From the NCBI RefSeq assembly GCF_056746865.1, contig NZ_CM163382.1: 64,000 nt of DNA, one strand, 5' to 3'. The number at the start of each line of letters is the position of its first letter. Position 1 is the first letter of the stretch. The translations under genes were made by a program, and so were the position numbers. This document shows positions 22,922 through 45,488 of this stretch, piece by piece. The notes below the pieces were generated by a model that saw nothing but the letters and a program-made list of their open reading frames with translations, did no database searches and was not told where the DNA came from.

Positions 22922-24229
22922 ATTGGATGAGCCAGTCAAGACTCAATCATTTTTTGAACAAATAGATAAATTTTGCGCAACGGCAGTGAATACAGGAAAA
23001 ATCGTTTTGAGCGATTTTATTTATCTTTGATATCGGCTTTATTAATTCATTTAATCAATATATTAGCACTGATTACAATTATACCTTTTTATTATTCTGT
23101 GTCATGATGCTTCCGTTATTAGCCTTTTATCGTCTTGTTTATATTTTTTGGGCCGGCATGATGCCGGCTTTTTTTTATGCCTTCATTAATGTGCGCCTGA
23201 TCACACCAGCCGTTTGGCGCAACAATCATTGATACCCCCTATGTTTCCGCTCAACTCATAACATATTGATATACATTTATAATTTTCATGAATATTTATA
23301 TTTAGAATTCATAATTCTGAATTATATTAAATAGATTAGAAACATTTTGAAATCTTTTAAATACATTTGTTACATGTAATCCTTAAAATAAAATGAACTT
23401 CATAGAATAGTATCCAAATGTGCTTTTTTTGGATAACGGCACTTATTGATATATTCATGAAGATTATAATCACAAGGGAATACATAATGAAAAGAAAAGT
23501 TCTGGCAATGCTGGTCCCGGCGTTATTAGTTGCTGGCGCAGCAAATGCGGCTGAAATTTACAATAAAGATGGCAATAAAGTTGATTTCTACGGCAAGATG
23601 GTTGGCGAACGCATCTGGTCAAATACTGATGATAATAACAGCGAAAACGAAGATACCTCCTATGCTCGTTTCGGTGTTAAAGGTGAAACCCAAATCACCA
23701 GCGAACTGACTGGTTTTGGTCAGTTTGAATACAACCTCGACGCCAGCAAGCCCGAAGGCTCTAATCAGGAAAAAACCCGTTTAACCTTCGCAGGTTTGAA
23801 ATATAACGAGTTAGGATCTTTCGACTATGGTCGTAACTACGGTGTTGCTTATGATGCCGCAGCTTATACCGATATGTTAGTTGAATGGGGTGGTGATTCC
23901 TGGGCTTCCGCTGACAACTTCATGAACGGTCGTACCAACGGTGTTGCAACCTACCGTAACTCTGATTTCTTTGGTCTGGTTGATGGTCTGAATTTTGCTG
24001 TGCAATATCAAGGTAAGAACAGCAATCGTGGCGTTACTAAACAAAACGGTGATGGCTATGCGTTGTCTGTAGACTACAACATCGAAGGTTTTGGTTTTGT
24101 AGGTGCATATAGCAAATCTGATCGTACTAATGAACAAGCTGGTGACGGCTACGGTGATAACGCTGAAGTGTGGTCATTAGCAGCCAAGTATGATGCAAAT
24201 AATATCTATGCAGCGGTAATGACTCCAAC

Positions 24230-24733
24230 TTATTGATAGTGTTTTATGTTCAGATAATGCCCGATGACTTTGTCATGCAGCTCCACCGATTTTGAGAACG
24301 ACAGCGACTTCCGTCCCAGCCGTGCCAGGTGCTGCCTCAGATTCAGGTTATGCCGCTCAATTCGCTGCGTATATCGCTTGCTGATTACGTGCAGCTTTCC
24401 CTTCAGGCGGGATTCATACAGCGGCCAGCCATCCGTCATCCATATCACCACGTCAAAGGGTGACAGCAGGCTCATAAGACGCCCCAGCGTCGCCATCGTG
24501 CGTTCACCGAATACGTGCGCAACAACCGTCTTCCGGAGCCTGTCATACGCGTAAAACAGCCAGCGCTGGCGCGATTTAGCCCCGACATAGCCCCACTGTT
24601 CGTCCATTTCCGCGCAGACGATGACGTCACTGCCCGGCTGTATGCGCGAGGTTACCGACTGCGGCCTGAGTTTTTTAAGTGACGTAAAATCGTGTTGAGG
24701 CCAACGCCCATAATGCGGGCAGTTGCCCGGCAT
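24230..24733 (-). CDS. insB: IS1 InsB (expressed as InsAB' by -1 frameshift)
   Basis: 167-aa ORF overlapping insA; A6C slippery run at about 24668..24676. Confidence 0.93.
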
Positions 24734-24927
24734 CCAACGCCATTCATGGCCATATCAATGATTTTCTGGTGCGTACCGGGTTGAGAAGCGGTGTAAGTGA
24801 ACTGCAGTTGCCATGTTTTACGGCAGTGAGAGCAGAGATAGCGCTGATGTCCGGCGGTGCTTTTGCCGTTACGCACCACCCCGTCAGTAGCTGAACAGGA
24901 GGGACAGCTGATAGAAACAGAAGCCAC
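24652..24927 (-). CDS. insA: IS1 InsA
   Basis: 91-aa [26 protein letters not shown]... Confidence 0.93.
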
Positions 24928-25380
24928 TGGAGCACCTCAAAAACACCATCATACACTAAATCAGTAAGTTGGCAGCATCACCCTATGCAGCAATGATGTA
25001 CGGTGAAACCCGCAACATGACCGTTTTGGCTAATGATCATTTTGCAAATAAAACCCAAAACTTTGAAGCTGTTGTACAGTATCAGTTCGACTTCGGTTTA
25101 CGTCCGTCTTTAGGCTACGTATATTCCAAAGGCAAAGATCTTTATGCTCGTAATGGACATAAAGGTGTTGATGCTGACCGCGTAAATTATATCGAAGTTG
25201 GTACCTGGTACTACTTCAATAAGAACATGAACGTCTACACAGCATACAAATTTAACCTGCTGGATAAAGACGATGCAGCGATTACCGATGCCGCAACTGA
25301 TGACCAGTTTGCAGTTGGTATCGTCTACCAGTTCTAATCAGCCAACGCGCCGCGGCGTGTTACTGTAAAACATAACACTA

Positions 25381-34644: not shown

Positions 34645-34720
34645 TCCTCTGTAGTTCAGTCGGTAGAACGGCGGACTGTTAATCCGTATGTCACTGGTTC
34701 GAGTCCAGTCAGAGGAGCCA
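34645..34720 (+). tRNA. asnT: tRNA-Asn (asnT)
   Basis: 76-nt TCCTCTGTAGTTCAGTCGGTAGAACGGCGGACTGTTAATCCG...GAGGAGCCA. Confidence 0.95.
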
Positions 34721-34797
34721 GATTCAAGTTTTCATGCTTATCTGTACGTTTATATTTGTTTACGATTCAGTAAGTTAGCGTGAAAATCCTTGCCGGT

Positions 34798-34869
34798 GCG
34801 TATCTGGTTTTATCTCCGCATCGGGATAATTTGGTGGTCAGATCTGGGGTCAGTTTGGTTCGATTCTGG
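34798..34869 (+). repeat. Short direct repeats (GTATCTGG / AGATCTGG / CGATTCTGG) between asnT and the integrase start; candidate integrase arm-type sites
   Basis: Three related octamers at about 34800, 34840 and 34861, plus two GGTCAG copies. Confidence 0.35.
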
Positions 34870-34882
34870 AGTGACCCCCAAA

Positions 34883-36151
34883 ATGTCTTTAAACGATTCT
34901 AAAATCCGCAAGTTAAAATCTTCTTCCCGTCCGGTAAAACTCTCCGACTCTCACGGTCTGTATCTGCTCGTCAATCCGGGCGGTTCGCGCATCTGGTATC
35001 TCAAATATCGTTTCAACGGAAAAGAATCCAGAGTCAGTCTTGGCGCATACCCGCTGGTCTCACTGGCAGAAGCCAGGCAACAGCGCGACGGTATCCGCAA
35101 GTTACTGGCGCAGAATATCAACCCGGCGCAGCAGCGCATGGCAGAGAAAGCCGCCTGCTCCCCTGAAAAGTGCTTTAAAGCGGTGGCGGTGGCGCTGGCC
35201 TGGCACAAAACCAACAAAAAATGGTCGGCTGATTATGCCGCCCGTATTCTCGCCAGTATGGAAAACCATATCTTCCCGGCGGTTGGTCATTTGCCCGTTG
35301 CCAAACTTAAAACGCAGGATTTCACTGCCCTGCTGAGGGTTATTGAGGATAAGGGCTTTCTGGAAGTCGCGTCCCGCACGCGGCAGCAACTCAGCAACAT
35401 CATGCGCTATGCCGTATAGCAGGGGCTTACCGAAAGCAATCCGGCGCAGCATCTGGATGGCGTTGTCTCCTCCCCCGTAAAGAATCACTACCCCGCGTTA
35501 CCGCTGGAGCGGTTGTCCGAACTGCTTGGCCGCATCGGTGACTATCAGCAGGGCCGGGAGTTAACCCGGCTGGCGGAGGTGCTGACACTGCACCTGTTCA
35601 TCCGTTCCAGCGAACTGCGTTTCGCCCGCTGGAGCGAGATCGATTTCAGGCACAAAATCTGGACCATCCCCGCCACCCGCGAGGCCATCGACAAAGTTCG
35701 GTTTTCGGGGCGTGGCGCAAAAATGCGTACTCCGCATATCGTACCGCTCTCCCGCCAGGCGATTGCCCTTCTGAAACAGATACAGGAGCTTTCCGGCCAT
35801 CTGGATCTGGTGTTTCCCGGCGATCATAATCCGTACAAGCCAATGAGCGAAAACACAACCAACCGGGCGCTGCGCCTGATGGGGTATGACACGAAAACTG
35901 AAATCTGCGGGCATGGACTCAGGGCAATGGCCTGTAGCGCCCTGGTGGAGTCGGACCTGTGGTCACGCGATACGGTGGAGCGGCAAATGAGCCACCAGGA
36001 GCGCAACAGCGTGCGGGCGGCATATGTGCATAAAGCAGAGCATCTGGAGGCCAGAAAGGCCATGATGCAGTGGTGGTCGGATTATCTGGATGTGTGCCGC
36101 GAGGGGTATGTTGCGCCGTACATTTATGCCCGGCAGCATAAGGCAGCCTGA
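34883..36151 (+). pseudogene. P4-type tyrosine integrase at asnT, interrupted by a single in-frame TAG at 35417..35419
   Basis: ORFs 34790..35419 and 35513..36151 share one frame and are separated only by TAG; N-terminal SLNDSKIRKLK arm-binding-type domain; C-terminal catalytic region. Confidence 0.85.
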
Positions 36152-36186
36152 ATCAGAAATAGCGTAAATCATTAAAACCGGAAAAG

Positions 36187-36217
36187 CAGATCCTGATTGA
36201 CCGGGATCTGTTTTTTT
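36187..36217 (+). terminator. Rho-independent terminator after the integrase gene
   Basis: CAGATCC...GGGATCTG hairpin followed by TTTTTTT. Confidence 0.7.
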
Positions 36218-36320
36218 GTATTGAGAGGTATTGTCGCTGTTTTTGTTATTATTAATTGGGAAGCACCGAAAATTATTCCAGTAGAATATTTGCAGTCGAT
36301 TGCCTATTAATAAATGCATT

Positions 36321-36660
36321 ATTGATAGATAATTACCTTCTGTGATTTGCCTGCAAATCACAGAAGATGAAAACCTATCAATACGGGATATTTTCACGAA
36401 AATACAAATTAATACTCCAGAATATCTGCACCAGAATATCTCCTGACCCTATACTCTGAAACCTGTAAGAACTGCATCAGATATTCAGAAACCAGACAGA
36501 TATAAGCCTGAAATTATTTGGCGTCCAATGATTTCAGGCGAAACCTATCAATGCATCTGTTTTCAACAGGCAGCCACCTTCCGTGATTCACATGTTAATC
36601 ATGGAAGGTGAAAAGCTATCAATAATCGACATTTCCACGGAATTACCACTTAATACATCC
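36321..36660. repeat. Array of three related modules, each a hairpin (palindrome) followed by a conserved box GAAA(A)(C/G)CTATCAAT-N5-a(t/c)aTTT(t/c)CA(c/a); plus one inverted box copy
   Basis: Palindromes 36337..36366 (perfect 14-bp arms), 36506..36539, 36575..36610; CTATCAAT at 36375, 36545, 36616; inverted ATTGATAG at 36321; no ORF. Confidence 0.6.
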
Positions 36661-37461
36661 CCAAAAATGCGCCATAAAATACCGGACAATCTTTCCTGAT
36701 ACAGATTATCACTGCACCAGCTATACGGAGACAAAATAATCTGCACCCGTCCTGGATAATCTGCTATCTGCGCCAGCGTCCCGCCGCTCTACCTGTTCAG
36801 TGCTGCGCCAGTACCTGGCCCTTTAGTTTTTGGCCCTTTCAGGTCAGGCGCTGTTCCCCTTATCGCCCCCTTAACCTTTATGACCCTTTCCCTTTCTGGC
36901 GCAGCCAGTTTATTTGGAAATGCTCCATGACAGTCTGCACCAGACTGTATTTTCACCACAGGATAACAATCACAAAGTGCAAAAAATAACATGAAGCACC
37001 GAAGATTCTTAATTCATATGAAGCAGGTTATTATGCCAAAAACCGTCGCAGCATTTTTATAAAATCATGAGGCATCCTGAGACCATATAATATATGTCAC
37101 AGGATACGGAAAAACACAGAGAGAATTATTCAGATATAACCCTGTGCCAGAATTAATGTGATGCCCCGGTGAATTTACATTTTAAAATTTTCCCAGCCCT
37201 GTAGTATTGGTAAAAATGATTGAAACACCTGTTATTAACAGAGAGCATTTCGTGTGATTACAGGGGTAATCACTATAATATTCCGACAAACTATATTGGT
37301 TAAGCAGGAGAATCTGATCTGTTGATATTTATTCGTCATGCTGTAACGATATTTTCACAATATAAACCCGTTCGCCCCCTGCGCCAGATCCGGAACATAG
37401 GGTACGATAAATCGCTGTCGTTACGCAGTAACGTACTATTTTGCGACATTCATGAATTCAG

Positions 37462-38346
37462 TTATTCCTCCCTCCAGCGGTATCCATACACCTGTTTCAC
37501 CCAGCGACCGCGACCGTCGCCATGACCCAGATCCGTCGCCGTCAGCGCCAGGGATTCCTTTTCGCTGAATCCCTGCGCCAGATAATGGCGGATCGCATCC
37601 TGCGCCCAGGCATAGCGCAGGGAGTGAGGGGAAAATTCCCCCTTCAGCCCCACCTTAATGACCTGTTTGTGCCAGCTCTCCAGCGCCATTTTGAGATCAG
37701 GCTTGTCGATCAGCCTGCCATTGTGTCGATCCGCGACCAGTAAGGCCTTTTCCAGAGCCTTCCTGACTGCGCCAGTATCCAGAACTGTCGTATGGCGGGG
37801 ACGCCCACCTTTGGTGCCAAACACCACTTTCAGCCGGTTTTCCCCGCGCTCAATGGCTTTCAGCCACGTTTTCAGCGACAGTGAACTCTGTACCGCTTCC
37901 TGCGAGCGTAACCCCATCAGTCGCGCGATCTCCAGCGCCGCAGCCAGCCCCGCATCCTCAGCGCGGGCTTTCTCCATAACCTGCTGGTAATGTTCCGGCG
38001 TAATGGCGCGGCGCGTACCGTTGCGTGAAGCGCCCGACACTCCCAGCGCCTTATTGGTTAGGCGTGGATGCTCCACCACCTGCCTGCGTCCAGCCTGTCT
38101 CAGCACGGCCTGCAGTGCCGCCATGTCGTTTTGCAGCGTTCGTAAACCAATATCCTGCTCCAGCCGTTCCTCAATGTAGCATTCGATATGGCGAACCCTG
38201 ATCTGCTCCACCCGCTGGATCTGGATATTCAGCGCCCGTAAATGTTCACTGAACCGTTTTGTAATATGGATACGGTCATTCACTGTTTTAAAGCTGCCGC
38301 CCGCTTTCTTCGCCAGCGCCTTCATTTCACTGCTTAATTTACTCAT
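37462..38346 (-). CDS. Tyrosine-type site-specific recombinase / integrase-family protein (294 aa), second recombinase of the asnT islet
   Basis: C-terminal HSLRYAWA...DLGHGDGRGRWVKQVYGY resembles the H-x-x-R ... catalytic-Y region of tyrosine recombinases; AGGGGA Shine-Dalgarno upstream of ATG. Confidence 0.6.
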   Translation of the reverse strand: MSKLSSEMKALAKKAGGSFKTVNDRIHITKRFSEHLRALNIQIQRVEQIRVRHIECYIEERLEQDIGLRTLQNDMAALQAVLRQAGRRQVVEHPRLTNKALGVSGASRNGTRRAITPEHYQQVMEKARAEDAGLAAALEIARLMGLRSQEAVQSSLSLKTWLKAIERGENRLKVVFGTKGGRPRHTTVLDTGAVRKALEKALLVADRHNGRLIDKPDLKMALESWHKQVIKVGLKGEFSPHSLRYAWAQDAIRHYLAQGFSEKESLALTATDLGHGDGRGRWVKQVYGYRWREE

Positions 38347-38935
38347 GAATCCCCTGCAACATAAACAAACAGTCTCCGGCGTGTGCTGTTTGGCTGCGCC
38401 AGAACGATACCTTCACGCCGGAGTGGCTGGTTGTTGAGGTTTAGGGAGTTTCAGGCTGTACGCGGTACAGACTGCCTGACGAAGCAGGGGTGTCTCCGGA
38501 GCATCGTGCCCCCCCTCGGTATCGATCTTTTTCTCCTTTACTCTGAGCTGACAGCGGCCCCAAAGGGCATGTCAGACGGCGGAAATATGGCGCAGGCCGG
38601 GACTGGCGCGGCTTGCGGCGGTATGTTGTGCAGCGTCACTTTGCCCTGTCGCTGGCGCGACCAGAGTGACACCTCGTCTGGTGCAGAGGGTAAACGTTGC
38701 GTTTCTGGTGCAGGGTGACGGTCACGCGGCAGCAAAGCCTGCTGTCTTTGCAGGCCGCAGCCCGTCAATGTAAGGCGCGGGTTGTCAGCAGAAGATAAAA
38801 CCCGGCAAAGCCAGAGTGCCAGCCCGTAAAGCCGGGTAAGCATGGCTACGAAGAAGAGAAGTGGAGAAAAAATAAATGACCGACAAATCTTATGCGGGAT
38901 GGGAATTAAACTACGCCGCTTAACTGCGGGTAACG

Positions 38936-41900
38936 GTGACCTTCACCATGCCACAGGACGTTGCGGCAAACTTTACCCTCGAAAATAACGGCATTGCCAT
39001 CACCCAAGCCAATGGGGAAGCGCATGTCACGCTGAAAGGTAAAAAAGCGGGTACGCATACGGTTACCGCAACGCTGGGTAATAACAATACCAGTGATTCG
39101 CAGCCGGTAACGTTTGTGGCGGACAAAACCTCGGCTCAGGTTGTCCTGCAGATGTCAAAAGATGAGATCACAGGTAATGGCGTCGATAACGCAACGCTAA
39201 CTGCAACGGTTAAAGATCAGTTCGACAATGAGGTGAATAATCTTCCGGTAACATTCAGCTCAGCCTCTTCAGGACTCACCCTGACCCCGGGAGTAAGTAA
39301 TACCAATGAGTCTGGCATCGCGCAGGCCACTCTCGCAGGCGTTGCCTTTGGTGAGCAGACGGTCACTGCATCACTGGCTAATAATGGTGCCAGCGACAAC
39401 AAAACTGTGCATTTTATTGGCGACACAGCAGCGGCAAAAATTATCGAGTTGACGCCTGTCCCAGACAGCATAATCGCCGGTACCCCGCAGAACAGCTCCG
39501 GCAGCGTCATCACCGCCACAGTCGTTGATAATAATGGCTTTCCGGTGAAAGGTGTGACTGTGAACTTCACCAGCAGAACAAACTCTGCCGAAATGACGAA
39601 TGGCGGCCAAGCCGTAACGAACGAACAGGGTAAGGCTACCGTCACTTATACCAATACCCGCTCCTCGATAGAATCAGGAGCGAGACCGCATACCGTTGAG
39701 GCCAGTCTGGAAAATGGTAGCTCCACGCTTAGCACATCAATTAATGTCAACGCTGATGCGTCTACGGCACATCTCACCTTGCTACAGGCACTTTTTGATA
39801 CAGTCTCCGCAGGCGACACTACCAATCTGTATATTGAGGTGAAGGATAATTACGGCAACGGTGTACCCCAGCAGGAGGTAACCCTCAGAGTATCACCAAG
39901 TGAAGGCGTGACCCCCAGTAATAACGCTATATATACTACCAACCACGACGGCAATTTTTACGCAAGCTTTACCGCTACAAAAGCCGGGGTTTATCAAGTG
40001 ACGGCAACCCTCGAAAATGGCGATTCGATGCAACAAACAGTGACCTATGTGCCGAACGTAGCGAATGCTGAAATCACGCTGGCAGCCTCGAAGGATCCGG
40101 TGATTGCCGACAATAACGATATCACGACACTAACAGCAACAGTCGCTGATACAGAGGGCAATGCGATAGCCAACACTGAGGTAACATTTACTCTGCCGGA
40201 AGATGTGAGGGCGAACTTCACGCTGAGCGATGGCGGTAAAGCGGTTACTGATGCCGATGGCAAAGCGAAAGTCACGCTGAAAGGTACAAAAGCAGGCGCT
40301 CATACTGTTACAGCATCGATGGCTGGCGGTAAGAGTGAGCAGTTGGTGGTGAACTTTATTGCGGATACACTCACTGCGCAGGTTAATCTTAACGTTACCG
40401 AGGACAATTTTATCGCTAATAACGTCGGGATGACCAGGCTGCAGGCAACAGTGACTGATGGAAACGGCAACCCGTTAGCCAATGAGGCGGTGACATTCAC
40501 GCTACCGGCAGATGTGAGCGCAAGCTTTACTCTCGGACAAGGCGGTTCCGCCATTACTGATATCAACGGCAAGGCTGAAGTTACACTGAGCGGTACAAAA
40601 TCCGGCACCTACCCCGTGACAGTTAGCGTGAACAATTATGGTGTCAGTGATACGAAACAGGTGACTTTGATTGCCGATGCTGGTACCGCAAAACTAGCCT
40701 CATTAACCTCTGTATACTCTTTCGTCGTCAGCACGACCGAGGGCGCGACCATGACTGCAAGCGTCACTGACGCTAACGGCAACCCGGTAGAAGGCATAAA
40801 AGTTAATTTCCGCGGAACCTCCGTCACGCTAAGCAGCACCAGCGTTGAAACGGATGATCGGGGTTTCGCTGAAATTCTTGTGACAAGCACCGAGGTCGGA
40901 CTGAAAACAGTTTCAGCCTCTCTGGCAGATAAACCTACTGAAGTCATCTCGCGATTACTGAATGCAAAAGCAGATATTAATTCTGCAACGATTACCAGTC
41001 TGGAGATACCTGAAGGTCAGGTCATGGTCGCACAAGACGTAGCAGTTAAAGCTCACGTCAACGACCAGTTTGGCAATCCGATTCTTAATGAATCTGTAAC
41101 ATTCAGTGCAGAGCCACCAGAGCACATGACCATCAGCCAAAATATTGTCTCTACTGATACGCATGGTATAGCCGAGGTCACTATGACGCCCGAAAGAAAC
41201 GGTTCGTATATGGTGAAAGCATCCCTGGCGAATGGATCCTCTTATGAGAAGGATCTGGTGGTAATCGATTAAAAACTGACACTCTCGGCGTCCAGCCCGC
41301 TTATCGGTGTCAATTCCCCAACAGGTGCAACTCTGACGGCAACGCTAACTTCTGCAAATGGCACTCCAGTGGAGGGTCAGGTCATCAACTTTAGCGTAAC
41401 GCCAGAAGGTGCGACGTTAAGTGGCGGAAAAGTGGGAACCAACTCTTCAGGTCAGGCTCCAGTCGTTCTGACCAGCAATAAAGTCGGTACATATACGGTG
41501 ACTGCATCGTTCCATAACGGCGTAACAATACAGACACAGACAACCGTGAAAGTCACTGGCAACTCAAGCACCGCCCATGTTGCTAGCTTTATCGCTGATC
41601 CATCGACTATCGCCGCCACCAACAGTGATTTAAGTACCTTAAAGGCAACGGTTGAGGATGGCAGTGGTAACCTGATCGAAGGTCTCACTGTGTACTTCGC
41701 CTTAAAAAGCGGCTCTGCCACATTAACGTCATTAACAGCGGTGACAGATCAAAACGGAATCGCGACAACAAGCGTGAGAGGAGCGATAACGGGGAGCGTC
41801 ACGGTAAGCGCAGTCACGACCGCTGGTGGAATGCAAACAGTAGATATAACGCTGGTGGCAGGCCCGGCAGACGCCTCAAAGTCAGTCCTTAAGAACAATC

Positions 41901-42000
41901 GGTCATCATTGAAAGGAGACTTTACCGATAGTGCTGAGCTACATCTTGTTCTGCACGATATATCAGGCAATCCGATCAAAGTTTCTGAAGGGCTGGAATT
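38936..42000 (+). repeat. Tandem coding repeats of about 300 nt (bacterial Ig-like domains) within the yeeJ remnant
   Basis: Recurrent nucleotide and protein motifs (GTCACGCTGAAAGGTA..., TVTATL/TVTASM) at roughly 100-aa spacing. Confidence 0.6.
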
Positions 42001-42775
42001 TGTGCAATCAGGTACTAACGTGCCCTATATGAAAATTAGCGCAATTGATTACAGTCAAAATATCAACGGTGATTACAAAGCCACCATTACAGGCGGCGGA
42101 GAGGGTATCGCAACGCTGATCCCTGTATTGAATGGTGTTCATCAAGCTGGTCTGAGTACCACAATACAATTCACTCGCGCAGAAGACAAAATAATGAGCG
42201 GTACAGTATCAGTCAATGGTACTGACCTACCGACAACTACATTCCCTTCGCAGGGGTTCACCGGGGCGTATTATCAGTTGAATAATGACAACTTTGCCCC
42301 AGGAAAAACGGCGGCTGATTATGAGTTTTCAAGCTCTGCCTCCTGGGTCGATGTTGATGCTACCGGTAAAGTGACATTTAAAAATGTCGGCAGCAATTGG
42401 GAAAGGATTACGGCGACGCCAAAATCAGGAGGCCCTAGCTATGTATACGAAATCCGTGTGAAGAGTTGGTGGGTGAACTCCGGCGATGCTTTCATGATAT
42501 ACAGCCTTGCTGAAAATTTTTGCAGTAGCAATGGCTACACACTTCCCCGTGCAGACCATTTAAACCATAGTCGTTCCCGAGGCATCGGGTCACTGTACAG
42601 TGAATGGGGAGATATGGGGCATTACACGACTGAAGCTGGTTTTCAATCAAATATGTATTGGTCATCTAGTCCCGCAAACTCAAGCGAACAATACGTAGTT
42701 TCCCTGGCAACAGGTGATCAAAGCGTATTTGAAAAGCTTGGGTTTGCTTATGCGACATGTGATAAAAACCTGTGA
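38936..42775 (+). pseudogene. yeeJ: 3' portion of an inverse-autotransporter adhesin gene (yeeJ-like; Big_1 Ig-like repeats and C-terminal lectin-like domain), 5' half absent, with in-frame TAA at 41270..41272
   Basis: ORFs 38936..41272 and 41369..42775 share one frame, separated by one TAA; repeated VTFTLP...FTL...G.A.VTLKG.KAG.HTVTA units; homology begins abruptly at about 38924 with no signal peptide or beta-barrel region. Confidence 0.8.
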
Positions 42776-42796
42776 TTTTCCGTTATAATTTCTTAA

Positions 42797-42826
42797 AGAG
42801 TGCTCCATTCGGAGCACTCTTTTTTA
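42797..42826. terminator. Bidirectional rho-independent terminator between yeeJ and yeeL
   Basis: GAGTGCTCC-ATTC-GGAGCACTC hairpin followed by TTTTTT. Confidence 0.75.
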
Positions 42827-43036
42827 CATTCCCTCTATAGAGCTTGCCCTTCTCTCACAGAAAATGAATAAATAAAACTGCTGCACCGCAAGAATCGCGT
42901 TCGATGTGACTATGATCGTATCCGGTGAGTACAGCTTTGATCCAAAGGCTGGTTTTCTGTGATGATTGACCAGCCTCAGAGTATTGATGACACCACCGTT
43001 CATAACAGATCGGCATTACTATGCATAAGTACTGTC

Positions 43037-43191
43037 TCATATTCTCGCCAAAACACTTTTTAATGCCTTTGCGAATTCATCCAGACTTATATTGTCAATT
43101 TTTTGCCCAACGACGACTGACTCCGAAACATCGGCCATTGCGGGCCATCGCGTTTTGTAATCAGCATAAATTGCAACAACGGGAGTATTAT
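43037..43191 (-). pseudogene. yeeL: Displaced 3' end of yeeL (about 51 codons) left of the IS2 insertion
   Basis: Minus-strand frame continues the yeeL frame once IS2 plus one 5-bp duplication (1336 bp) is removed. Confidence 0.55.
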
Positions 43192-43202
43192 TGGATTTGC
43201 CC

Positions 43203-44108
43203 CTATATTTCCAGACACCTGTTATCACTTAACCCATTACTGGCCCGCTGCCGTAGATATTCCCGTGGCGAGCGATAACCCAGTGCACTATGCGGATGCC
43301 ATTCGTTATAATGCTCGAACGCCTCTGCAAGGTTCTTTGCTGCCGTTAACCCGTCTGGTTTAGGCATGATACTGATGTAGTCACGCTTTATCGTTTTCAC
43401 GAAGCTCTCTGCTATGCCGTTACTCTCCGGACTCCGCACCGCCGTGTTCTTCGGTTCAAGCCCCAACATCCGGGCAAACTGCCGTGTTTCATTAGCCCGG
43501 TAGCATGAACCATTATCCGTCAGCCACTCTACTGGAGACGCCGGAAGCTCGTTGCCGAAGCGGCGTTCCACCGCTCCCAGCATTACGTCCTGTACTGTTT
43601 CACTGTCGAAGCCGCCCGTAGTGACTGCCCAGTGCAGTGCCTCACGGTCACAGCAGTCCAGCGCGAACGTGACTCGCAGTTTTTCTCCGTTATCACAGCG
43701 GAACTCGAACCCGTCAGAGCACCATCGTTGATTGCTTTCTTTCACGGCCACTTTGCCAGTATGTGCCCGTTTCGATGGCGGTACAGCGGTTTTTCGCTCA
43801 AGCAACAGCGCATTCTGGCGCATGATCCGGTAAACACGTTTGGCATTGATCGCAGGCATACCATCAAGTTCGGCCTGTCTGCGAAGCAGCGCCCATACCC
43901 GACGATAACCATACGTGGGCAGCTCTCCGATAACATGGTGTATACGGAGAAGCACATCCGTATCATCTGAGTGACGGCTGCGGCGACCATCTTTCCAGTC
44001 ATCGGTTCGTCTGAGAATGACGTGCAACTGCGCACGCGACACCCGGAGACAACGGCTGACTAAGCTTACTCCCCATCCCCGGGCAATAAGGGCGCGTGCG
44101 CTATCCAC
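43203..44108 (-). CDS. insD: IS2 transposase OrfB (InsD)
   Basis: 301-aa ORF with DDE-transposase sequence. Confidence 0.93.
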
Positions 44109-44431
44109 TTTTTTGCACGCCCGTATTCAACGGCTTCTTTAAGGAGTTCATTTTCCATCGTTTTTTTGCCGAGCAGGCGCTGGAGTTCTTTAATCTGCTT
44201 CATGGCAGCAGCAAGTTCAGAGGCAGGAACGACCTGCTCTCCTGCGGCCACAGCAGTAAGACTTCCCTCCTGGTATTGCTTGCGCCAGAGAAATAACTGG
44301 CTGGCTGCCACACCGTGTTGCCGGGCAACAAGGGAGACCGTCATTCCCGGTTCAAAACTCTGCTGAACAATAGCGATCTTTTCCTGTGTAGTACGCCGTC
44401 TGCGTTTCTCCGGTCCTAAGACATCAATCAT
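44066..44431 (-). CDS. insC: IS2 OrfA (InsC)
   Basis: 121-aa product from [18 protein letters not shown]; overlaps insD for -1 frameshifting. Confidence 0.93.
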
Positions 44432-44522
44432 CTGCTCTCCAATGACTAGTCTAAAAACTAGTATTAAGACTATCACTTATTTAAGTGATATTGGTTGTCT
44501 GGAGATTCAGGGGGCCAGTCTA

Positions 44523-45488
44523 ATTATAGGCACTTGCCATATGTAATATTGAGGTGTCAGGAGTTATTGCGATATAAGCATCTTTTATGATTGCTGCTGA
44601 ACGTTTAATCGAGGGTGATAAGGATAAACGGTAGACATTATTATAACAATCCACTAATACCCTGGCTTTATCTTCCCCTTTTGGTCCATGAACGATCACT
44701 ATTGGTATATCTGTTTCACTTTGAATTTTTGCTATTAGATTTTCTGCAATCGATAATGAAAATGTACGTTCCTGCGAGCTACCTTCTAAATTAAGCGCAA
44801 TGTAAGATCCTAACGATCGCATTTCCTCGCGCACCTCATCGAGTACATCCTCACTTAGTGGCAATTCATATATTGGCCTGACTGCTGGAAAACCCGCCTC
44901 ACGCATCATAAATGCCCATGTCATGGGTACAGGAGCCCGGAGATTCTGATCCATCCGGGACGCGTTCTTGCACAAAGGGGAGTAGCACTTCATGGTTAAA
45001 CCAACAACCTGAAAATTCGTTTTTGCTTTTAACTGACTGATAAATATCATCGTTTTCAGGTTCTTTTTACGCATCGCCTCTATACAAAGATCCGGCGTAC
45101 CGTATTGCTGTGTTATGTTCTTTGCTAAATCTTTTATTTCTTTTAATGTTGCGTGATCCTGCATAGTCATTGTGACTAATGTTAATTTAGTCTTTTCAAG
45201 TTTAAGTGCATTAAACACTTCTAAATTAATTGTCGACGTAACAATTAAAAGATGCTTAATTTTATGCAATTCAAGCGCCCGAATAACAGGAAAGATGGCC
45301 ATAGCATCGCCAATCTGGTCGGGAATATGGATAACAACAAACTCTGTTTTTTCAATATTAAAATTATAAGCTTTATAATCGTAGTAACTAAATGCAATAC
45401 GTCTCAACAATGATGCTAAAAACATACCTAACCTCGCCTCCCTACTGGTTATAATGCATTGCAGTCTATCAGACTCATCATGGCGCAA
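44523..45488 (-). pseudogene. yeeL: yeeL, uncharacterised putative transferase, 3' end disrupted by IS2
   Basis: 322-aa ORF whose apparent stop codon lies inside the IS2 terminus. Confidence 0.7.

Follow-up and report, generated by a model that had tools for sequence, protein, structure and literature searches.

A decayed yeeJ locus beside the asnT island

The window, the whole stretch of 64,000 nucleotides analysed here (contig NZ_CM163382.1), carries a yeeJ pseudogene, the remains of a gene for a type Ve (inverse autotransporter) adhesin, with at least three lesions: a stop codon, an internal deletion and a promoter deletion. The gene decayed stepwise, and both deletions probably arose from the loss of adjacent DNA that accompanies the excision of an insertion sequence (IS). 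A yeeJ pseudogene is in itself ordinary; the left breakpoint of the internal deletion, in contrast, is common to 17 different deletions in other strains, all of which follow ...GCGGGTA. The features of the locus are as follows, with a slash marking each joint.

34726–38838, no strand assigned: island remnant at tRNA-Asn (asnT, 34645–34720), with a P4-type integrase pseudogene and a tyrosine recombinase gene
38837–38838, plus strand: TA at the first deletion joint (38838/38839), where island site I is joined to the AGC preceding the yeeJ ATG
38842–38932, plus strand: retained yeeJ 5' end, 91 nt (MATKKRSGEKINDRQILCGMGIKLRRLTAG plus 1 nt)
38842–38988, plus strand: residual open reading frame of 48 codons, the yeeJ start frame read over the joint and ending at TAA 38986–38988
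38931–38932, plus strand: TA at the second deletion joint (38932/38933), site Y, with 3,143 bp missing
38933–41269, plus strand: yeeJ passenger remnant part 1, beginning at Big_1 position 36 and continuing with seven more Big_1/Invasin_D3 domains
41270–41272, plus strand: ochre codon TAA, codon 1858 of the 2,358-codon allele, from CAA (Gln) via C-to-T, between two Ig-like domains
41273–42775, plus strand: yeeJ passenger remnant part 2, with two Big_1 domains, Invasin_D3, Invasin_D4 and an intimin-type C-lectin cap
43037–43191, minus strand: yeeL-like glycosyltransferase family 9 gene, 3' fragment, severed by IS2
43192–44522, minus strand: IS2, 1,331 bp, with open reading frames of 136 and 301 amino acids on the minus strand
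44523–45425, minus strand: yeeL-like glycosyltransferase family 9 gene, 5' fragment

Descent from yeeJ is indicated by the orthologous position and by a Big_1/Invasin_D3 passenger ending in a C-type lectin cap. The yeeJ gene of K-12 MG1655 (b1978; the adhesin of PMC5595812) occupies the same position, in the order asnT, yeeJ, yeeL, shiA and amn. The remnant shares 94.6% protein identity with residues 1059–2339 of K-12 YeeJ (94.6–96.3% over the K-12 and O157 proteins), and the K-12 protein has the same passenger domains and lectin cap. A single frame runs from 38933 to the natural stop codon at 42773–42775 and, as the earlier note had reported, is interrupted solely by the in-frame TAA at 41270–41272 (translated as ...LVVID-stop-KLTLSASSPLIG...). 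Pfam finds Big_1/Invasin_D3 repeats, Invasin_D4 and the intimin-type lectin domain in the remnant and nothing else, the first Big_1 match beginning at model position 36 of 93. The IAT_beta (PF11924) barrel spans residues 144–419 of the full-length allele of strain Ch1, within the deleted residues 31–1078, and is not matched in the window remnant. No LysM domain is listed by Pfam; LysM has the signal peptide on one side and the barrel on the other in YeeJ (PMC5595812) and, judged by this position, would belong to the missing part. An NCBIfam search of the remnants returned only sub-threshold intimin matches, which are uninformative.

The yeeJ ATG is located at 38842; the counterpart of the curated K-12 start codon is at 38899. 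The retained 5' end encodes the charged n-region of the signal peptide alone (MGIKLRRLTAG); the hydrophobic core (ICLITQLAFPMAAAA) is deleted, leaving no Sec signal peptide. The earlier statement that signal peptide, LysM and barrel are all missing therefore holds for the core, LysM and the barrel, but the charged n-region is still there. The window thus lacks the LysM and IAT_beta barrel of a functional inverse autotransporter, and no uninterrupted frame leads from the start codon to the lectin cap, owing to the frameshift at 38932/38933 and the TAA at 41270. A functional YeeJ product appears impossible, and the 48-residue peptide is the most that would be translated. A shorter functional allele starting at 38936, which the earlier note had named as a possible refutation, is implausible: the GTG at 38936 encodes an internal Val located midway through a Big_1 domain, and the N-terminus read from it (VTFTMPQDVAANF...) has neither a charged nor a hydrophobic signal sequence and leads to no beta-barrel.

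Two deletions and an older stop codon

Mapped against the full-length Ch1 allele, following the alignment that the earlier note had proposed, the internal deletion comprises exactly 3,143 bp (yeeJ nt 92–3234). The same interval is absent relative to K-12 yeeJ and covers the core of the signal peptide along with LysM, the beta-barrel and the first Ig domains. The break thus lies at 38932/38933 and not at 38924, where homology had been thought to start, and the supposed loss of the 5' half is internal, with the ATG and the first 91 nt kept at 38842–38932. Since 3143 mod 3 = 2, the start frame ends after 48 codons at the TAA 38986–38988. The other deletion removed 6,585 bp relative to strain 33-6, with its right end 5 nt before the yeeJ ATG, and took away an RHS core gene, two small open reading frames, the attR repeat of the island and the yeeJ promoter region. 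Accordingly, the window lacks the K-12-type promoter region, and no promoter-like site was found in 38350–39000.

Homologous or unequal recombination between Big_1 units had been suggested as the cause of the 5' loss, and yeeJ does contain many such units of ~300 bp each. However, the left endpoint falls at codon 31, in the signal-peptide region outside the repeats, the right endpoint falls at position 36 of the Big_1 model, nothing but TA is common to both sides of the 38932/38933 joint, and 3,143 bp is not divisible by 3. The mapped joint rules this explanation out, and we assign it next to no probability. It is equally far-fetched that the deletion or the stop codon arose as an error of sequencing or assembly in a repetitive gene. 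Frameshifts in yeeJ may be assembly errors, according to a published warning (PMC5595812), but the sequence left of the joint is unique, the same joint occurs in complete genomes of two other strains, and the same TAA is present in 99 records.

The codon at 41270 is TAA in the window, GAA in K-12 and CAA (Gln) in close alleles, which gives CAA as the ancestral codon that the earlier note had proposed to map. A 90-mer containing the TAA has exact matches in 99 complete-genome records, among them two independent ATCC 8739 assemblies. The exact 38932/38933 joint is present in three complete-genome records and was found in strains EC17CM13 and F11. Since the TAA is present in 99 records and the deletion in three, the stop codon is older than the 3,143-bp deletion. 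Second lesions differ among the TAA alleles: there is none in Ch1, a 1-nt deletion in ATCC 8739, IS insertions in 33-6, and the 3,143-bp deletion in EC17CM13, F11 and the window. In ATCC 8739 and 33-6, which carry the TAA, the promoter and the RHS element are still there. The EC17CM13 pseudogene ACQP5E_RS14275 (NZ_CP190333.1) and the F11 locus are 100% identical to the window over 36500–43201, including both joints and the TAA. PGAP labels the former 'Ig-like domain-containing protein; internal stop; missing N-terminus', and this annotation begins past the joint, so that the retained 91-nt 5' end is missed. In both strains, unlike in the window, the neighbouring glycosyltransferase gene is free of IS2.

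The IS2 copy is 1,331 bp long, has terminal repeats and is flanked by a 5-bp target duplication, ATTAT (43187–43191 and 44523–44527); its ends are TGGATTTGCCCC... and ...GGGGGCCAGTCTA, which we take to be the IS2 termini. Its joint was found in 0 of 5,426 genomes, and yeeL is a pseudogene already in K-12. The two independent inactivating lesions of the earlier note are indeed independent, but they number at least three in the gene, with IS2 in the neighbour as a further one. A loss of surface structures in this lineage, also put forward there, finds weak support: the IS1 in the porin gene is common to EC17CM13 and F11, but yeeJ is intact in only about 35–40% of E. coli genomes (PMC5595812, PMC6714894), and yeeL is not intact in K-12 either. 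The pattern looks like the common decay of a cryptic locus and not like a lineage-specific programme.

A deletion hot spot with fixed ends and variable partners

The retained flank of site Y ends in ...CGCCGCTTAACTGCGGGTA. The 17 distinct joints at this site have the form ...ACTGCGGGTA followed by X, with X ranging from yeeJ nt 417 to past the stop codon, and they are natural alleles spread over many lineages. Of the 16 resolvable cases, 15 have TA immediately before X in the intact partner, the allele of GDSC2227PM being left out for want of an intact copy to compare; TA makes up 4.9% of the dinucleotides in yeeJ, and homology past TA is not more frequent than expected by chance. The right edge of the asnT island remnant (...GCCCGTAAAGCCGGGTA) is a second hot spot, site I, whose fixed end ...GCCGGGTA is joined to three different partners, each preceded by TA. 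Of the 19 resolved cases from both sites, 18 have TA, GTA or GGTA as the microhomology at the joint, and one (L104) has a single A. A fixed end, a variable partner and very short microhomology characterise 17 joints at site Y and three at site I, and the two fixed sites have the 10-mer CGGGTATCTG in common. Full-text literature yielded only unrelated primer sequences for this 10-mer or its complement, and no description of a yeeJ deletion hot spot was found in the cited literature.

A dedicated site-specific enzyme that cuts CGGGTA/TCTG and joins it to loose secondary sites, thereby switching yeeJ off, would account for a 10-mer common to two fixed ends (chance about 4^-8), and a TA match at the crossover with nothing further is expected from a 2-bp core. 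A candidate would be the 294-aa tyrosine recombinase encoded in the asnT island (37462–38346, minus strand; ~490 bp from site I), or else some nickase or serine recombinase. Yet a K-12-like asnT spacer without the island is found in seven of the ten site-Y alleles with an assembled upstream flank, the partner sites have no common motif, the L104 joint shares one A only, and every event seen is a one-sided deletion. With IS629 at the exact site as a simpler cause, we regard such an enzyme as quite unlikely. It is more doubtful still that CGGGTA/TCTG, beyond being a target of IS629, is recognised by an E. coli nicking or recombination activity that is site-specific and so far undescribed; if true, this activity would make repeated one-sided deletions and irreversibly switch off yeeJ, together with the adjacent RHS element, in natural populations.

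Several other systems were compared with the joints on the basis of their known features. IS630-type TA cut-and-paste transposons, Hin/Gin-type invertase quasi-sites, Xer/dif-like sites, HUH nick sites, gyrase sites, Chi and Cas3 long-range deletion were rejected for a sequence misfit or because they would not produce a fixed end with a variable partner.

Insertion sequences at the hot spot

In Z1323HEC0422 and Z1323HEC0399, the sequence ...CTGCGGGTA is followed directly by TGAACCGCCCCGGG, which places a 1,310-bp IS629 at the exact site-Y nucleotide; beyond the element, yeeJ picks up at about nt 2775. In one further allele (L018), the site-Y flank runs into another IS3-family element at a point 503 nt within it, and in another (L014) an IS1 lies 1 nt from site Y. 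Neither window joint carries an IS or IS fragment, and IS629 is absent from the 64 kb. A search for an IS at site Y within an otherwise intact yeeJ returned none, the flank followed by TGA... had 0 matches in metagenome contigs, site Y was occupied in 0 of 120 sampled yeeJ 5' ends, and exact look-ups of the predicted read-through peptides gave no match. At site I, no IS was seen. Site I bears a weak likeness to the IS629 inverted repeat, with a score reached by 21 of 2,000 shuffles before correction for eight comparisons, and the likeness of site Y was not significant in local alignment against shuffles. Two loci with IS629 flanked by GGGTA (L034, L035) are uninformative on target preference because the chimeric query design selected them.

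These observations also bear on spontaneous deletion through microhomology, by replication slippage or end joining without a mobile element, for which the hairpin CCGC-TTAACT-GCGG 5' of the joint would stall replication and so explain the recurrence. The window joint is free of an IS, the homology used is 1–4 nt only, and a hairpin with a 4-bp stem precedes both hot-spot sites. Given the positions of oriC and ter, the position and strand of K-12 yeeJ also place its transcription head-on to replication. However, 17 independent events keep the same end to the exact nucleotide, where slippage normally scatters, and the hairpin is offset by 1 nt between sites Y and I, although both have the identical 10-mer CGGGTATCTG. 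In two genomes IS629 stands at precisely this nucleotide, and L018 has a different IS3-family element adjoining it. Spontaneous deletion is accordingly an unlikely explanation.

Proposed history and mechanism

The lesions and their order give the following history. CAA at codon 1858 first became TAA. A loss of ~6.6 kb, from the asnT island site to 5 nt before the yeeJ ATG, then removed the promoter. The third step was the 3,143-bp deletion, which runs from yeeJ nt 91 to a point midway through a Big_1 repeat; it shifted the frame and took out the core of the signal peptide along with LysM, the barrel and the leading Ig-like domains. Finally, IS2 entered the neighbouring yeeL-like gene, in this strain only.

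For the deletions, an IS3-family element, of which IS629 was caught in place, may insert at CGGGTA/TCTG. Its transposase, aided where present by the IS-excision enhancer IEE, would leave a flank ending in ...GGGTA-3', and this end could be rejoined to a downstream site matching just its last 1–4 nt, so that the element would disappear together with neighbouring DNA of variable length. We infer that this lineage once had an IS at 38932, whose removal caused the deletion. The other E. coli losses from the same nucleotide were probably likewise produced by the removal of an insertion sequence there.

The locus displays a stepwise, ordered loss of yeeJ, a cryptic biofilm adhesin, and should be annotated as one pseudogene (a 91-nt stub and two Ig-like open reading frames) instead of 'Ig-like domain-containing' proteins. 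If confirmed, at least 17 natural deletions from one nucleotide, together with IS629 in place, would constitute a population-scale record of IS excision with adjacent DNA, a known process so far documented mostly in laboratory assays and O157. A fixed flank and a terminal match of 2–4 nt could then serve to identify IS-less deletions elsewhere as IS scars.

Comparison with known systems

IS629 excision and adjacent deletions are promoted by IEE, according to Kusumoto et al. (2011) as cited in PMC9943667 and 10.1101/2023.06.07.543989; the latter describes deletion joints at 2–4 bp microhomologies and a strand-switching flank 3'-OH. The yeeJ events resemble IS629/IEE excision in having one end fixed, at a putative IS boundary, and the other variable, in sizes from hundreds of bp to several kb, in joints with very short microhomology, and in the presence of IS629 itself at site Y in other strains. 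In contrast to IS629/IEE excision, the IS is gone in the window and its former presence is deduced, and unlike the laboratory products, the yeeJ events are natural alleles from many lineages. A further parallel comes from the mcr-1 transposon Tn6330, which can lose its ISApl1 (Snesrud et al. 2018, as cited in 10.1101/2023.06.07.543989), a loss attributed there to strand switching of the flank primer in copy-out transposition. As far as that citation describes them, the IS-less descendants of Tn6330 likewise have joints at 2–4 bp microhomologies, but their deletions are near the IS length (about 1,070 bp), whereas several kb of adjacent DNA are lost here. Moreover, ISApl1 belongs to the IS30 family, while the element proposed at yeeJ belongs to the IS3 family.

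Domain content and internal deletion of yeeJ

The region from approximately 38927 to 42775 forms one reading frame, whose sole break in the ORF listing and translation is the TAA codon at 41270–41272 (...YEKDLVVID-stop-KLTLSASSPLIG...). Pfam assigns to the half preceding the stop a partial Big_1 domain, beginning at model position 36 of 93, followed by seven Big_1/Invasin_D3 domains, and to the half following it two Big_1 domains, Invasin_D3, Invasin_D4, and an intimin-type C-lectin domain. These results bear out the single frame, the stop, and the absence of N-terminal modules described in an earlier note. An 8 kb query covering the locus gave a 100% single-piece match in three complete-genome records (one of EC17CM13 and two of F11), and the match was split into two pieces against strains such as Ch1. 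Base-by-base comparison with Ch1 located the deletion joint at 38932/38933.

Sequences at the deletion joint (the slash marks the joint)
Ch1, left side: ...ACTGCGGGTA/TCTGTCTG...
Ch1, right side: ...GGCGGGAATA/ACGGTGACC...
Window: ...ACTGCGGGTA/ACGGTGACC...

Relative to Ch1, 3,143 bp corresponding to yeeJ nt 92–3234 are missing, a length not divisible by three, and this exact joint occurs in only three records. The yeeJ ATG (38842) and 91 nt are still present, and the deletion is therefore internal; the earlier description of a deleted 5' half holds for the N-terminal modules but not for the 5' end itself. The curated K-12 start (NP_416485.5) corresponds to 38899, and the K-12 protein comprises 2,340 aa (PMC5595812). 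The frame from the yeeJ start codon now stops after 48 codons. The lost codons 31–1078 encode the signal-peptide hydrophobic core, the IAT_beta barrel (residues 144–419), five Ig-like domains, and the opening third of a Big_1 domain, and the published LysM position lies within the same codons (PMC5595812). Recombination between Big_1 units, raised previously as a possible origin, is excluded because the left end lies outside any repeat, and the homology between the two sides is limited to TA. PGAP annotates the EC17CM13 counterpart as a pseudogene ('internal stop; missing N-terminus') and the 7,077 bp yeeJ of Ch1 with 'internal stop'; the window allele thus already carries a pseudogene annotation in RefSeq. 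An assembly artefact is excluded, as independent assemblies show both the joint and the TAA.

Nonsense mutation and upstream deletion

A 90-mer centred on the TAA matched exactly in 99 records and at 95–99% identity in a further 519, the displayed rows of that band all being one-base differences. CAA is present in all three sampled records of the 95–99% class (O157:H7 7409, MLI106K1, and ES6), and K-12 carries GAA in a more divergent allele. Since these three close alleles carry CAA, the ancestral codon at 41270, which the earlier note had sought, is CAA (Gln), and the change is CAA to TAA. In the Ch1 allele the TAA, at codon 1858, occurs without the deletion.

Second lesions in yeeJ alleles carrying the TAA codon
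Ch1: none
ATCC 8739: 1-nt deletion at nt 400
33-6: IS3-family element and IS1
EC17CM13, F11, and window: 3,143 bp deletion

This allele comparison indicates that the nonsense mutation preceded the 3,143 bp deletion. Upstream of yeeJ, homology to K-12, O157, and ATCC 8739 begins only at 38835. The window, Ch1, and EC17CM13 contain an island integrated at asnT (...GCCCGTAAAGCCGGGTA) fused to AGC-ATG of yeeJ; the joint at 38838/38839 connects the island sequence ...GCCGGGTA to a point 3 nt 5' of the ATG.

34726–38838: degenerate island at tRNA-Asn (asnT), holding a P4-type integrase pseudogene
37462–38346, minus strand: apparently intact 294-aa tyrosine recombinase (Pfam Integrase_1 / Phage_int_SAM_2; distant XerC-like)

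Strain 33-6 likewise has the TAA; there, this island sequence runs on as TCTGGTGCAG... into an RHS element, followed by the island attR, which duplicates the 3' end of tRNA-Asn, and then the K-12-type yeeJ promoter region. Compared with 33-6, 6,585 bp are missing, comprising the RHS core gene, the island attR, and the yeeJ promoter. The 490 nt upstream contain no sigma-70-like site, which is weak evidence. As ATCC 8739 and 33-6 show, the promoter-region deletion is younger than the TAA. The two independent inactivating lesions proposed for yeeJ, the TAA and the deletion, are both present, and the joint at 38838/38839 adds a third.

Neighbouring genes and yeeJ decay

43192–44522: IS2, 1,331 bp, target duplication ATTAT, within a glycosyltransferase family 9 gene (flanks 43037–43191 and 44523–45425)

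We take this element to be IS2 from its terminal sequences; the gene that it splits is the counterpart of the K-12 pseudogene yeeL. The IS2 joint was found in 0 of 5,426 complete genomes, and the insertion is therefore the youngest event. ETEC H10407 matches the joint at 93% and carries an IS3-family element in nearly the same position. An IS1 at 24215–24982 disrupts a porin gene adjoining hchA, presumably yedS by its position; EC17CM13 (100%) and F11 (99.9%) share this insertion. The suggestion that this lineage has lost surface structures finds no specific support, as yeeJ is often inactivated elsewhere and yeeL is a pseudogene in K-12. Intact yeeJ was reported in 38/96 and 44/126 complete genomes, with frameshifts in further genomes (PMC5595812, PMC6714894), and the gene's expression under laboratory conditions is cryptic (PMC5595812); a decayed yeeJ is therefore ordinary.

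A deletion hot spot in yeeJ

The joint 90-mer also matched other strains with the yeeJ 5' end near Ig-like sequence, and mapping of these strains revealed variable right ends and a constant left end after nt 91 (site Y, 38932/38933). The 48-residue stub, used as a protein query, yielded 24 short ORFs, 13 of which diverge exactly after ...RLTAG. The DNA behind the short-ORF matches, together with 120 sampled metagenome contigs in which the yeeJ 5' end is present, raised the count to 17 distinct joints, all reading ...ACTGCGGGTA/X, with X ranging from yeeJ nt 417 to past the stop codon. TA, which constitutes 4.9% of yeeJ dinucleotides, directly precedes X in 15 of 16 identifiable intact partners; the single exception, a small deletion in metagenome contig ERZ773168 NODE-6052 with its partner at nt 417, shares only A. 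Matches extending to GTA or GGTA occur at no more than the chance frequency. Within the metagenome sample, picked only by a 23-nt anchor ending at TA, 117 of 120 contigs are wild type and three have site-Y joints. The fixed end in the asnT island (site I, 38838/38839) is joined to three different partners, TA preceding each of them, and has the 10-mer CGGGTA/TCTG (CGGGTATCTG) in common with site Y. A further copy of this 10-mer lies at 13389–13398 (0.08 expected by chance in 64 kb). In locus L019, representing one lineage, the partner TA/AGCCAGAAAG (yeeJ nt 1591) is fused to site Y, and in loci L024–L026, from three other lineages, it is fused to site I, reflecting either a recurrent partner or alleles related by a further event. 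A dedicated recombinase, such as the 294-aa enzyme of the island, is a quite improbable agent of the deletions: seven of the ten site-Y deletion alleles with an assembled upstream flank have no island at the locus, one joint shares a single nucleotide, and no motif is shared among the partner sites.

IS elements at the hot spot

A composite query linked each of the hot-spot flanks with terminal sequences from twelve IS types. Z1323HEC0422 and Z1323HEC0399 read ...CTGCGGGTA/TGAACCGCCCCGGG, a 1,310 bp IS629 exactly at yeeJ nt 91, beyond which yeeJ restarts at approximately nt 2775.

5032–6341 of locus L033 (Z1323HEC0422, NZ_CP148339.1): IS629 at yeeJ nt 91

A T6SS VgrG/PAAR cluster replaces the usual asnT context upstream in Z1323HEC0422, whose locus is therefore further rearranged. 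In locus L018, the flank is joined, after TA, 503 nt within another IS3-family element, and in locus L014 an IS1 lies one nucleotide from the site. Thirteen short-read contigs terminate within about 10 nt of this position, which is what a repeat boundary would produce. A short ORF (protein match P0021) passes from yeeJ codon ~57 directly into the opposite end of IS629 (…QGVHMNRPGFPGECFICE…), and therefore represents another IS629 insertion, distinct from the first, in the 5' region of yeeJ. No IS-occupied site Y with intact yeeJ was found among metagenome contigs, the 120 sampled 5' ends, and exact peptide look-ups; neither window joint retains an IS remnant, and the target resembles the IS629 inverted repeat weakly.

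Plain slippage at a small hairpin is an unlikely source of the deletions, since it would not keep one end fixed across 17 events and leaves the IS found in place out of account. Throughout, one end is fixed to the nucleotide, the partner varies, and the retained flank matches the partner only in its final few nucleotides. Because of this pattern and the IS found at the site in other genomes, we infer that both window deletions are probably scars of IS removal. The type of event itself is known; the nucleotide-precise yeeJ hot spot and its link to IS629 are modestly new. During the loss of copy-out-paste-in IS, the transposase exposes a 3'-OH on the flank where it meets the IS, and this end pairs at 2–4 bp microhomologies (10.1101/2023.06.07.543989). 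The joints at the two fixed sites resemble this described loss in their fixed end, variable partner, and flank match of a few nucleotides.
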